Shown here: piece after piece, positions 1,255 to 59,746 of the stretch | Position numbering within the stretch: position 1 is the stretch's first letter | How the letters are laid out: every line of letters begins with the position of its first letter | Position numbers and translations under genes: made by a program | The notes under the pieces: generated by a model | What the model saw: only the letters and a program-made list of their open reading frames with translations | Databases searched by the model: none | Told to the model about the DNA's origin: nothing | Assembly (NCBI GenBank): GCA_963933835.1 | Contig: CAWVVV010000006.1 | Coordinates: 38,681-102,680 of the forward strand | Source: an uncultured Puniceicoccaceae bacterium | Lineage (GTDB): Bacteria > Verrucomicrobiota > Verrucomicrobiia > Opitutales > Oceanipulchritudinaceae | Direction: 5' to 3' | DNA length: 64,000 nt

Positions 1255-2013
1255 TCAAGATCGGACGTCCTTCCGAAAGGTATGTAAGACGATAGCGAGA
1301 AGAGCGCAGCTAGCGGTTTCGACCCGCAGGATGCGTGGCCCGAGTGTGACACCTGTCCAGCCATAGCTGGTAAACGCGGCATACTCGGCCGCTGAGAAGT
1401 CACCTTCGGGACCGATCGCGAGGCGGATTTTACCACCCTGAGTCGTTTTGAAGCGCTCGTGGTCAAGCGCGTCATGCAGGGAGACGCTTGCTGGCGTCAA
1501 TGCGGCGACGAGCGCACTGCCTTCCGCTGGCTGGGAATCTTTGGAGAGCAAATCCAGCAGGCGGGCGGGCGGGTCGATGCGAGGTAGCCAGGGATTGCCG
1601 CACTGCTTGACCGCTTCCTCGGCGGCGGCCATCCACTTTTGCTGTTTTTGAGCTGCGCGCTCCGCGTCTAGTTGGACGTCACCGTGCTCAGTGAGGATAG
1701 GCCGGATACGAGTCACCCCAAGTTCGGTAGCTCGCTGGACGATCCCATCCATGAGTTTGCCCTTGGGGATCGATTGCCACAGTTCGACTGACCAACTGGG
1801 AGCGGGTTCTGTTTCCGCAAAGGTGATCTCAAGAATGGCTTCGCGGGCATCCGCGTCAGCGAGATGGGTCCACGCTCTGCGCCCTCGGCCGTCTAGGACC
1901 TCAATGCGTTGCCCCTCGGCAGCGCGGCGGACACGGACGAGGTGATGGCTTTCTTCCTTAGAAAGCGTGATCGTTCCAGAGTCGGGGATATTTGGGTGAA
2001 ATGTTCGAAGCAT
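1255..2013 (-). CDS. rsmE: 16S rRNA m3U1498 methyltransferase RsmE
   Basis: HHLVRVRR, KGKLMDGIVQRATELGV, IGPEGDFS, LGPRILRVETA. Confidence 0.95.
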   Translation of the reverse strand: MLRTFHPNIPDSGTITLSKEESHHLVRVRRAAEGQRIEVLDGRGRRAWTHLADADAREAILEITFAETEPAPSWSVELWQSIPKGKLMDGIVQRATELGVTRIRPILTEHGDVQLDAERAAQKQQKWMAAAEEAVKQCGNPWLPRIDPPARLLDLLSKDSQPAEGSALVAALTPASVSLHDALDHERFKTTQGGKIRLAIGPEGDFSAAEYAAFTSYGWTGVTLGPRILRVETASCALLAIVLHTFRKDVRS

Positions 2014-2066
2014 GGGTTGATGAAGAGTGCTTAGACACGCTCGCTCAGTTCTCTGTCTCCGAAAAC

Positions 2067-2097
2067 AAAAAAACCGCTCATTTTCATGAGCGGCTTT
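2067..2097 (-). terminator. Intrinsic terminator of sRNA copy 1
   Basis: Minus strand GCCGCTCAT-GAAA-ATGAGCGG followed by T7. Confidence 0.85.
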
Positions 2098-2146
2098 CTT
2101 AGTGCTTAACCAAACTAAAACTTAACTGTAACTAATTCTGCTGTTC
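2067..2146 (-). ncRNA. Candidate small RNA, copy 1 (~80 nt)
   Basis: Starts GAACAGCA 6 nt after a TCTAC -10-like box; U-rich core ending GTTAAGCACT; GAAA-loop terminator with T-run; paralogue at 2256-2332; no ORF. Confidence 0.65.
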
Positions 2147-2152
2147 AAATAA

Positions 2153-2184
2153 GTAGAGTGAGGTCACGCCGGATGTGTTCAAAA
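2153..2184 (-). promoter_or_regulatory. Putative ECF-sigma-type promoter, copy 1
   Basis: Minus strand TTTTGAAC-N19-TCTAC; same boxes and spacing in copy 2 with an unrelated spacer. Confidence 0.6.
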
Positions 2185-2255
2185 AATTATCAACAATATT
2201 GAAAAAGTTTTTTGAGGGCAGGGAATCCCTGTGTTTAAGCGCCTCTTCGAGGCAC

Positions 2256-2287
2256 AAAAAAACCGCCCATTTTCATGGACGGCTTTT
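2256..2287 (-). terminator. Intrinsic terminator of sRNA copy 2
   Basis: Minus strand GCCGTCCAT-GAAA-ATGGGCGG followed by T7. Confidence 0.85.
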
Positions 2288-2332
2288 CAAGTGCTTAACA
2301 AAACTAAAAACTACTGAAACTAAATGCTGTTC
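2256..2332 (-). ncRNA. Candidate small RNA, copy 2 (~77 nt)
   Basis: Starts GAACAGCA, TTAGTT..CAGT..TTTTAGTTT.GTTAAGCACT core, terminator; paralogue of 2067-2146. Confidence 0.65.
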
Positions 2333-2338
2333 TCTTAT

Positions 2339-2370
2339 GTAGAACGCCCCGAAGAGCTATTTGTTCAAAA
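2339..2370 (-). promoter_or_regulatory. Putative ECF-sigma-type promoter, copy 2
   Basis: Minus strand TTTTGAAC-N19-TCTAC. Confidence 0.6.
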
Positions 2371-2416
2371 TTCTTTTCGAAAAGCTGCAGTTTTTGAATT
2401 TTCTTCACATAGGCCT

Positions 2417-3400
2417 CTAGAAAAGAGCGTTCGCGACGCCGGTGACTGCTGTGATCGGCCCCGCATCACCAAAGCTGTCGAGTGCTTGGTCGGCCTTTTG
2501 TAGCATTGAGCGCAGCTCGCGGTAGAGTTCATCATCGTTGATCAATTTAGTGAGGGTGCCGTCGCCGTTGTTGAGCTGCTCGGAGAAGAGGCGGAGATTC
2601 TCGGCCGTCTTTTGTAGGTCCACCGCGATGGTATCGTCGTAAAGGAGCTTTCCAAGCGAGCCTTCGCCCGCTTCGAGGTTTTGGAAAACGGTCTGGGCGT
2701 CCGTCATGAGGATTTTTGCTTCGCTGGCAGCCGCTTTGATCTCAGTCACGGCGGAGAGGAGCTCGTTGTAGCCTTCGTCATCATTAATCAGTTTTCCGAG
2801 CGTGCCTTCGGTCGAAGCGAGGGCGGAGGTCACTTTTTCCAGATTATCGAGCACGACGGTCAGCTGCTCGCCATTCTTCTCTACGAGGTTATTGATGTTA
2901 TCCATCAGGTTGCCGGGGCCACCTTCACCGCCACCGGTGAAGCTTTCGATTGCGCCACCGAGCTTCTCGCCGATTTCGCCGACCTGACTGAGGACGTCGT
3001 TAAAGTCAGTTGATTCGGTCGTTCCGATCGGGCTGGTGCTGCTGAGGTAGATCGATGAGCTGCCGTAGCTCACGTCGACGTAGTTCTGCCCGAGCAGACT
3101 GGCCATCGCGATGCTCGCGATCGAGTCGTCGGGGATCTTGACCGATTCGTCGATGAGGAGAGTGGCTTCAGCGCGGCCTTCATTTAGGCGGGTAATTTCG
3201 ACGACACCGATGCGCACGCCAGCGAGGCGAACGTCTGAGCCAGGTGTGAGGGTCTTAATGTCGTCAAAGCCTGCGGTCAGGACGTAGCCCTTTTCTTTCG
3301 CAAGCGTGCCGCCTCCGACGACGGAAAAGACGATGTAAGTGAGGGCGAGGCCGAGGAGGAAGAAGAGGCCAACCCCTGTAGCTTGGAGTCCGGTTTTCAT
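2417..3400 (-). CDS. mlaD: MCE/MlaD family protein with long helical C-terminal extension
   Basis: N-terminal TM; L..GSDVRLAGVRIGVV; SLLGQNYV; three G(T/S)L.KL..DD repeats. Confidence 0.9.
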   Translation of the reverse strand: MKTGLQATGVGLFFLLGLALTYIVFSVVGGGTLAKEKGYVLTAGFDDIKTLTPGSDVRLAGVRIGVVEITRLNEGRAEATLLIDESVKIPDDSIASIAMASLLGQNYVDVSYGSSSIYLSSTSPIGTTESTDFNDVLSQVGEIGEKLGGAIESFTGGGEGGPGNLMDNINNLVEKNGEQLTVVLDNLEKVTSALASTEGTLGKLINDDEGYNELLSAVTEIKAAASEAKILMTDAQTVFQNLEAGEGSLGKLLYDDTIAVDLQKTAENLRLFSEQLNNGDGTLTKLINDDELYRELRSMLQKADQALDSFGDAGPITAVTGVANALF

Positions 3401-56637: not shown

Positions 56638-57180
56638 TTACTCTTTCGAGTCCCAATCGCCACCCCTCGAACCGCGTCGACCGCCGCCCCGGGAGGAACG
56701 CCCGCCCACGTCACCGCCGCGTCCGCCGCGAAATCCACCACCGCCGCGTCCGTCTCGGCCACCGTCGCCTCGGCTACCACCGCGGCCACCGCGAGGAGCG
56801 CCTCGGCCACGAAAACCACCGCCACCGCGTGGACCATCGTCAGAGTGAAGTCGTGGGGCGCGAGGGGCGCCACGACCACGAAAATCACCACCGCCACTTG
56901 GCTGGTCACTGCTTTCTTCGCCGCGGCTTTCGCGGGGAATCGCCACGGTTACGTGCAGGTCGCGATCGTAAAGGATATGGCCGTTGATCTTCTCAATTGC
57001 GGCTTGAGCGAGTTCATCACTAGCCATTGTAACGAAAGCAAAACCTCGAACTTTACCGGTGTCGCGATCGCGAGGATAGTAGAAATCAAGGACTTCACCG
57101 ACGTCCTCAAAAAGTGGACGAATCTCGTCTTCGGATGACTCGAAACTGATATTCGCTACGAATAACTTGTTAGCTTGCAT
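56638..57180 (-). CDS. RRM (RNP-1) RNA-binding protein with RGG tail
   Basis: RNP2 LFVANI, RNP1 RGFAFVTM, Gly/Arg-rich tail. Confidence 0.95.
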   Translation of the reverse strand: MQANKLFVANISFESSEDEIRPLFEDVGEVLDFYYPRDRDTGKVRGFAFVTMASDELAQAAIEKINGHILYDRDLHVTVAIPRESRGEESSDQPSGGGDFRGRGAPRAPRLHSDDGPRGGGGFRGRGAPRGGRGGSRGDGGRDGRGGGGFRGGRGGDVGGRSSRGGGRRGSRGGDWDSKE

Positions 57181-59447: not shown

Positions 59448-59524
59448 TCTTGAACCGTGCGGTTGAAAAAGTGTCTAACTCGTTCAGGCTCTATCACACG
59501 CTATTCCCACCCAGCCCCTCTTTT

Positions 59525-59746
59525 ATGAAATCTTCCCTTCTGCTCTTTGGACTTAGCCTTCCGTTGGTCGGGTGCCTCCATGTCAAAACTGACCCGATCA
59601 AGATCGAACCGATCTACATCGAGATCACCGTGAACCACCGTGTGCAAAAGGAACTGGATGACTTTTTTGCCGAGATTGATCAGGCTTCAACAACGACCGA
59701 GTACCAGCCGCTAGAACTAGAAACCGCCGAAAAGGATTCCGAGTAA
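59525..59746 (+). CDS. YnbE-like small lipoprotein
   Basis: Lipobox LVGC, KIEPIYIEITVN..V.KELDD.F; coupled to the ydbL-like gene. Confidence 0.7.
   Translation: MKSSLLLFGLSLPLVGCLHVKTDPIKIEPIYIEITVNHRVQKELDDFFAEIDQASTTTEYQPLELETAEKDSE

Follow-up and report, generated by a model that had tools for sequence, protein, structure and literature searches.

Among described bacterial small RNAs (sRNAs), several come close to the pair of RNA genes reported here. RybB, MicA, MicL, VrrA and MicV are short sRNAs that combine sigma-E-type boxes and an intrinsic terminator with a conserved seed, act on outer-membrane protein (OMP) targets and occur as redundant siblings; they associate with Hfq, and the seed of RybB lies at the 5' end (partial text of PMC6694218). 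These likenesses recur at the present locus, where the OMP targets are predicted, whereas here no Hfq was found, the conserved box lies on the 3' side and there is no Rfam similarity. According to the partial text of PMC9546586, sigma-E sRNA arms had previously been documented in Proteobacteria only, and FoxI of Fusobacterium nucleatum is an sRNA under an ECF sigma whose seed represses OMP mRNAs in a host without Hfq. The present units are similar, with both promoter and pairing predicted, but FoxI belongs to another phylum and has no Rfam sequence match here, and the present units are tandem siblings known from sequence alone. FopS of Bacteroides thetaiotaomicron is also multicopy and consists of a single strand plus a terminator; it pairs near the start codons of SusC/TonB-dependent transporter mRNAs through a 5' seed (R1'), is bound by an RRM protein and is transcribed from housekeeping-sigma promoters in 14 copies (partial text of PMC11697453). 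RRM genes are present here too, whereas the boxes are of ECF type, the core is 3', the copies number one to four and there is no Rfam match. GcvB, which has a G/U-rich seed, differs from the present RNAs in being Hfq-dependent, in targeting amino-acid transporters and in acting on mRNAs with Shine-Dalgarno motifs, and it too gave no Rfam match here. It base-pairs ahead of the start with translation enhancers that contain ACA (partial text of PMC3879156); the RNAs described below are similarly predicted to pair with A/C-rich start regions.

We analyzed a 64,000-nt stretch of DNA from an uncultured Puniceicoccaceae bacterium (the whole stretch is called the window, and its source the window genome). 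The initial annotation had claimed a sibling pair 186 bp apart in the gap between mlaD and rsmE; exact coordinates could be read for both units, and Pfam/NCBIfam identifies their neighbours as MlaD and RsmE. The sequence reads as two minus-strand units with an offset of 186 bp, in each of which promoter-like boxes lead to a U-rich core and then to a terminator that covaries, with the following features:

2417..3400, minus strand: mlaD/MCE-family gene, last in the upstream mlaE-mlaF-mlaD run (Pfam/NCBIfam); context, not required by the RNA family
2363..2370, minus strand: copy A -35-like box TTTTGAAC (sequence reading; the family box is present in 84 of the 87 true copies)
2339..2345, minus strand: copy A -10-like box GTTCTAC, family form CGTCT[A/T] (score 18.2 with a matrix trained without the window genome)
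2256..2332, minus strand: copy A putative sRNA of 77 nt, its start deduced from the promoter boxes (folding; model match)
2288..2313, minus strand: copy A candidate seed, a conserved core rich in G and U with family form GTTTGTAGTTTGGTTAAGCACTTG (comparison with relatives)
2256..2283, minus strand: copy A intrinsic terminator with 9-bp stem, GAAA loop and U7 (stem-loop 2283-2262, T7 to 2256)
2177..2184, minus strand: copy B -35-like box TTTTGAAC, with an A/T tract ahead (sequence reading; matrix)
2153..2159, minus strand: copy B -10-like box ACTCTAC, with TCTAC at 2157-2153 (matrix score 15.7)
2067..2146, minus strand: copy B predicted 80-nt sRNA (sequence reading; folding; model match)
2101..2123, minus strand: copy B candidate seed, a conserved core rich in G and U (comparison with relatives)
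2067..2094, minus strand: copy B intrinsic terminator (stem-loop 2094-2073, T7 to 2067)
1255..2013, minus strand: downstream rsmE, 16S rRNA m3U1498 methyltransferase (Pfam/NCBIfam); the commonest neighbour, not obligatory

In copy A, a 19-nt spacer separates TTTTGAAC (2370-2363) from TCTAC (2343-2339), and after a further 6 nt GAACAGCA runs from 2332; in copy B, GAACAGCA begins at 2146. The two copies are about 80% identical across 93 nt (BLAST, E 1e-16), and no third copy was found by BLAST in the 1.94-Mb, 97%-complete genome. A third match of the family model described below (C4:108391) was without boxes and core and was dropped. The compensated stem changes claimed at the outset are borne out by both copies: T-A in copy B is C-G in copy A and C-G in copy B is U-G in copy A, with pairing kept. 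Folding z-scores were -2.9 for copy A and -4.5 for copy B, equally stable shuffles numbered 0/200, and the common fold is the terminator hairpin. Neither copy has an AUG ahead of its terminator, and a small-peptide reading was therefore rejected. Two small hairpins and an A/T tract lie between the copy A terminator and the copy B promoter (window 2185-2255, minus strand); A/T tracts also stand ahead of the -35 box in many family copies.

The regions upstream of rsmE in relatives have the same anatomy as the window copies. A model built from 34 copies matched 35 of 41 genomes, 24 of which had given training rows; among the 17 non-training genomes, 11 were matched, one of them (G027) falsely. 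Weak model matches in G026, G027, G031 and G032, which were without boxes and core, were dropped. In total, 89 distinct rows were pooled, two of which are chance matches in coding DNA, leaving 87 true copies; ECF-type boxes (TTGAAC-N16/17-CGTCT type) are present in 84 of these. When 151 genomes of the phylum were searched with the model, every match better than E 1e-3 lay inside the bacterium's own order, and the family was recovered across Opitutales. A strict promoter-plus-core pattern was found in 17 of 45 genomes of the order and in none of 256 other genomes of the class, with reversed-pattern controls at 0. For family f19, this pattern gave 0/5 in a set of four f19 genomes plus G029, and 3/18 f19 genomes in a wider scan. 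A looser, collection-wide pattern gave at least the matches listed, mostly by chance, and is usable only for six named loci of Opitutales or Opitutaceae; all named loci with the unit belong to these two groups. In another order, L304 (G197:C86:36224-36297) combines boxes, a U-rich core and a terminator and is a possible distant copy, from which the RNA family may extend slightly beyond Opitutales. Tandem pairs are common, with one to four mostly adjacent copies per genome (four in G191).

Against Rfam release 15, window positions 1700-2800 gave a best E of 1.1, with all hits far below the gathering threshold, and 10 loci of relatives gave only 2 tRNAs; nothing near threshold matched the RNA in either set. 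Our literature search, which lay outside subscription journals and the supplements of motif screens such as PMC8040213, PMC8632094 and PMC6429828, found no description of this RNA family and no characterised regulatory sRNA of Opitutales. The units are a real, order-wide, undescribed non-coding family, belonging to no described family. As first proposed, they appear as short, independent non-coding genes, each with ECF-type boxes and a terminator, which are conserved in relatives while the gene context varies; the members are very probably transcribed as independent sRNAs.

Three parts of the unit are conserved. The promoter region reads TTTGAAC-N16/17-CGTCT, the two spacer lengths occurring in 22 and 23 of 45 copies, and we take these GAAC/CGTC boxes to be of ECF type. 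Spacer information is at most 0.33 bit past its first base, compared with 1.1-2.0 bits in the -10 box. The promoter originally described, with TCTAC 19 nt from GAAC, holds as to the conserved ECF-type boxes but not as to its form: the family has CGTCT at 16 or 17 nt from GAAC, and the window arrangement is a variant of the N17 form. A genome scan for that arrangement showed no excess at its spacing, GAAC-Nn-TCTA having 33 matches at n=19 in the window genome within a range of 20-50 for n=10-30. Likewise, promoter-matrix matches are genome-wide no more numerous than shifted-spacer controls, though more often intergenic. Support for the promoter comes from conservation in relatives, not from genome counts. 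A sigma-70 consensus scan gave 0 sites. Three copies (L002, L004 and L007) have the same core and TTG..N17 sites in place of ECF-type boxes; these sites may be housekeeping promoters.

A conserved G/U-rich box, GTTTGTAGTTTG, stands directly before the terminator. The core there is GTTTGTAGTTT in 64 rows, of GTTTGTTGTTT type in 21 and GTTTGTGGTTT in 2, with TTTAGTTT variants in the window. The 5' part is variable. The GAACAGCA element, claimed as a 5' seed, did not hold up across the family: only in the window's genus, in 5 of 84 boxed copies, is the box followed by GAACAG, and a 5' seed of the RybB/MicA type was thus not found. Since the 5' part is unconserved and the 3' G/U box conserved, the candidate seed is the 3' box and not the 5' end. 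Similarly, the claimed length of 77-80 nt agrees with the predicted RNAs of the window copies (77 and 80 nt) but not with the family, in which 27 to 123 nt separate the -10 box from the core. In the terminator alignment, 89% of cells are paired (slid controls, 31-63%), six of seven pairs have changes on both sides, and the covariation score was reached by 0/500 shuffles. The hairpin folds behind all 51 copies examined. An intrinsic terminator without an ORF is a feature shared with sigma-E-dependent sRNAs, and it is present here.

Expression data were available as four small-share metatranscriptome contig sets from one study, with one contig each. One contig (1993-2145) ends one base from the predicted copy B start but crosses the copy B terminator, and no discrete transcript was seen among the assembled contigs. 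The gene context bears on whether the RNA is instead a cis-acting leader or attenuator of rsmE, or a mere terminator of the mla operon, that was locally duplicated. Within 900 nt, rsmE lies on the same strand in 43 of 89 rows, which such a leader would predict, and one RNA contig does extend from 2145 into rsmE; yet rsmE is on the opposite strand in 4 rows and absent in 42, and mlaD, found within 900 nt in 24 rows, is not near in 65. In family f18 the copies mostly adjoin another gene (presumably MazG-like) rather than rsmE. Copies that flip or move away from rsmE and mlaD in this way indicate independent genes and not leaders. Moreover, neither an alternative fold nor a leader ORF was found. 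A leader or operon terminator is thus largely refuted by gene context and highly improbable.

The cognate sigma factor was sought among the eight Sigma70_r2 matches of the window genome. The best candidate for the RNA promoter would be an RpoE-like gene (G000:C5:23813-24481), whose best NCBIfam match is RpoE TIGR02939 at 153.5 bits, below the cut-off of 236. It is followed by an anti-sigma-like ORF without a name and, two genes on, by a trypsin+PDZ protease, an order that we take to resemble rpoE-rseA-degP. A match is found in 40 of 41 relatives, with at least 49% identity in most. With the window genome left out of matrix training, the site ahead of the gene itself reaches 19.7, the best of all upstream regions in the window genome, and no other sigma gene of this genome has a strong upstream site. 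This autoregulation is not conserved, a site of at least 13 occurring in only 2 of 30 loci, window genome included. One coding target of the promoter is conserved, the tolQ-tolR-tolA/tonB operon: its site occurs in the window genome, in G105 (24.8) and among 30 loci in 7 at a score of at least 13 and 9 at a score of at least 10 (opposite strand, 1). In the window genome the operon lies at G000:C1:405460-406170 on the minus strand (L470), and the site, often TTTTGAATTGG, is kept in G105 and several relatives. Beyond tolQ, no shared regulon was detected between the window genome and G105 (1 pair of 733 at scores of at least 12, p 0.14). A promoter match of 19.4 at window 59448-59480 (plus strand) lies 77 nt ahead of a small lipoprotein-like ORF at 59526, a candidate regulon member. 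Weak promoter matches of 6.1 and 13.2 were also observed at similar distances from a group-2 (RpoS-like) sigma gene (L063, G000:C1:108996) and its orthologue in G105, respectively.

It is improbable that a different ECF sigma reads the sRNA promoter or that the signal is something other than envelope stress. The eight sigma matches and the unconserved autoregulation would allow for this, as would G036, where a model match stands beside a sigma match of just 33%, and two reduced genomes, G027 and G031, in which the sigma is present but no clear RNA copy is. On the other hand, conservation of the RpoE-like gene is strong throughout the order; the gene is alone among the sigma genes of the window genome in having a strong upstream site, is one gene away from an RNA copy in G078 and is missing together with the RNA in G026, and the shared site ahead of tolQ points the same way. 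From the RpoE-like sigma operon, the tolQ promoter and the OMP start-region complementarity presented below, an envelope link for the RNA pair is plausible.

To predict targets, genes were called by our own hexamer model, giving 1815 in the window genome and 1712 in 2.0 of the 3.06 Mb of G105, which was analyzed in 100 separate pieces with the ribosomal-protein cluster and some OMP genes missing. OMP sets came from a C-terminal heuristic, with Pfam naming 14 of 16 members in the window genome and 22 of 24 in G105, and start codons from the same caller. One gene with a doubtful start (g1060) was left out after energy ranking; from G105, four candidates that were partial or not barrels were removed ahead of scoring. 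Exact matches of at least 8 nt to the 34-nt cores within -50..+30 were found in 6/16 OMP genes versus 106/1795 others in the window genome (composition-matched p 0.001), and in 10/24 versus 153/1687 in G105 (composition-matched p <0.0001). Shuffled 34-nt cores reached the observed values in 10/200 and 7/200 cases, and swapping the RNAs between the two genomes lowered the OMP signal (p 0.12 and 0.01). The complementarity is limited to the start region and is gone further upstream. In each genome, the top OMP-enriched 7-mer is the complement of its own seed variant: AACTAAA occurs in 3/16 OMP genes of the window genome and 0/24 of G105, and CAAACAA in 0/16 and 6/24, respectively. Across 28 BBP2 porin orthologues the value was 6.79 versus 5.81 +/- 0.24 for shuffles, 0/300 of which reached it, shuffle counts being overstated by the kinship of orthologues. 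Control start regions of rsmE showed no excess over shuffles. Separately, start regions of the RpoE-like ECF sigma (L190-L218) match the RNA core above shuffles (z 3.3), a possible feedback on the sigma.

Other tests were weaker. When targets were ranked by energy with G-U pairs allowed, OMP genes were not enriched (AUC 0.576; 7/22 shuffles higher), while Watson-Crick-only ranking gave an AUC of 0.643, equalled by 1/22 shuffles; full-length duplex folding produced noise. With 18-nt seeds, shuffles reached the cognate values in 24, 121 and 11 of 300 cases, and in G105 the genome's own seed was not favoured. The exact 11-nt seed complement before ATG occurs at 23 places in 37 genomes, mostly the RNA genes themselves, and among nine loci inspected, four matches fell in coding DNA, one at a small ORF and one at a porin start (G041, L225). 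Homologues of the porin g1185 occur in only 3 of 40 relatives. The OMP complementarity beats composition-matched controls, and shuffled seeds only weakly. Shuffles of such simple sequence keep much of the motif, which makes this null strict; on a fair reading, G/U richness explains most of the OMP signal and exact order adds a little. Shine-Dalgarno-like motifs are rare in both genomes (202/1815 genes, 11%, in the window genome; 132/1712, 8%, in G105), which fits a masking of A/C-rich initiation regions.

The function towards which we lean, by a narrow preference, is that of an ECF-sigma-driven sRNA pair, similar to FoxI and RybB, that would repress translation of porins and TonB receptors. 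An RpoE-like ECF sigma would transcribe both sibling copies as trans-acting sRNAs, presumably upon envelope stress; the G/U-rich seed beside the terminator would pair with the A/C-rich start regions of OMP mRNAs and so block their translation, and the tandem copies would raise the dose. With regard to chaperones, Hfq (PF17209) was found neither in the window genome (0/1) nor in five other genomes (0/5), the controls matching in 5/14, and ProQ was not found in the window genome. Two RRM genes are present there; one RRM-domain gene with a Gly/Arg-rich tail (window 56953-57165, minus strand) is a candidate RNA chaperone. Elsewhere in this genome, contig ends (G000:C2:1-290 and the terminal part of C1) carry a tandem repeat of 39 bp, which probably encodes Lys/Ala-rich N-terminal repeats of a histone-like protein.

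Two other functions have to be weighed against this OMP-directed pair. The RNA, while truly an ECF-driven sRNA, might silence more broadly, in the manner of GcvB, by acting on A/C-rich translation enhancers of strongly expressed messages, or it might act on the mRNA of the sigma itself. Longer matches tend to go with higher expression as judged from codon usage (rho 0.15 and 0.18), the best matches include groES and genes for ribosomal proteins and HU-like proteins, part of the signal is common to highly expressed genes (6.4 for ribosomal proteins versus 5.6 overall), the ECF-sigma start regions exceed shuffles as noted, and silencing of ACA enhancers is described for GcvB (partial text of PMC3879156). 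Such breadth is unlikely, though it deserves some weight: OMP genes stand above highly expressed non-OMP controls in G105 (p 0.001) and marginally in the window genome (p 0.07), and each top 7-mer occurs in just 1/120 high-expression genes of its own genome. Alternatively, the single-stranded U/G-rich core could be a protein decoy that sequesters an RNA-binding protein, such as one of the RRM type, and has no base-pairing targets. The absence of Hfq from six genomes and of ProQ from the window genome, the two RRM genes, the low-complexity core, the up to four tandem copies and the weak gain over shuffles would all suit a decoy, which nevertheless predicts neither the complementarity to OMP start regions nor the genome-matched 7-mers; the RRM-bound FopS RNAs of Bacteroides, moreover, act by pairing nonetheless (partial text of PMC11697453). 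We consider a decoy distinctly unlikely.

Returning to OMP repression, the regulator kind itself is well known. More tentatively, and with the balance tilted against it, the family may represent an Hfq-free, non-coding envelope-stress arm that evolved independently in Opitutales, in which, in genomes with few Shine-Dalgarno motifs, a tandem-amplifiable sRNA would mask A/C-rich enhancers of porin and TonB-receptor genes, with a seed co-evolving by lineage (UUUAGUU, UUGUAGU, UUGUUUG) and an RRM protein possibly replacing Hfq. The promoter box would provide a handle on an unstudied ECF regulon, and the family would be a system for testing sRNA action in which both Hfq and the Shine-Dalgarno motifs of the target mRNAs are missing. 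A further unrelated family of this type would suggest that ECF-driven OMP repression has originated repeatedly.
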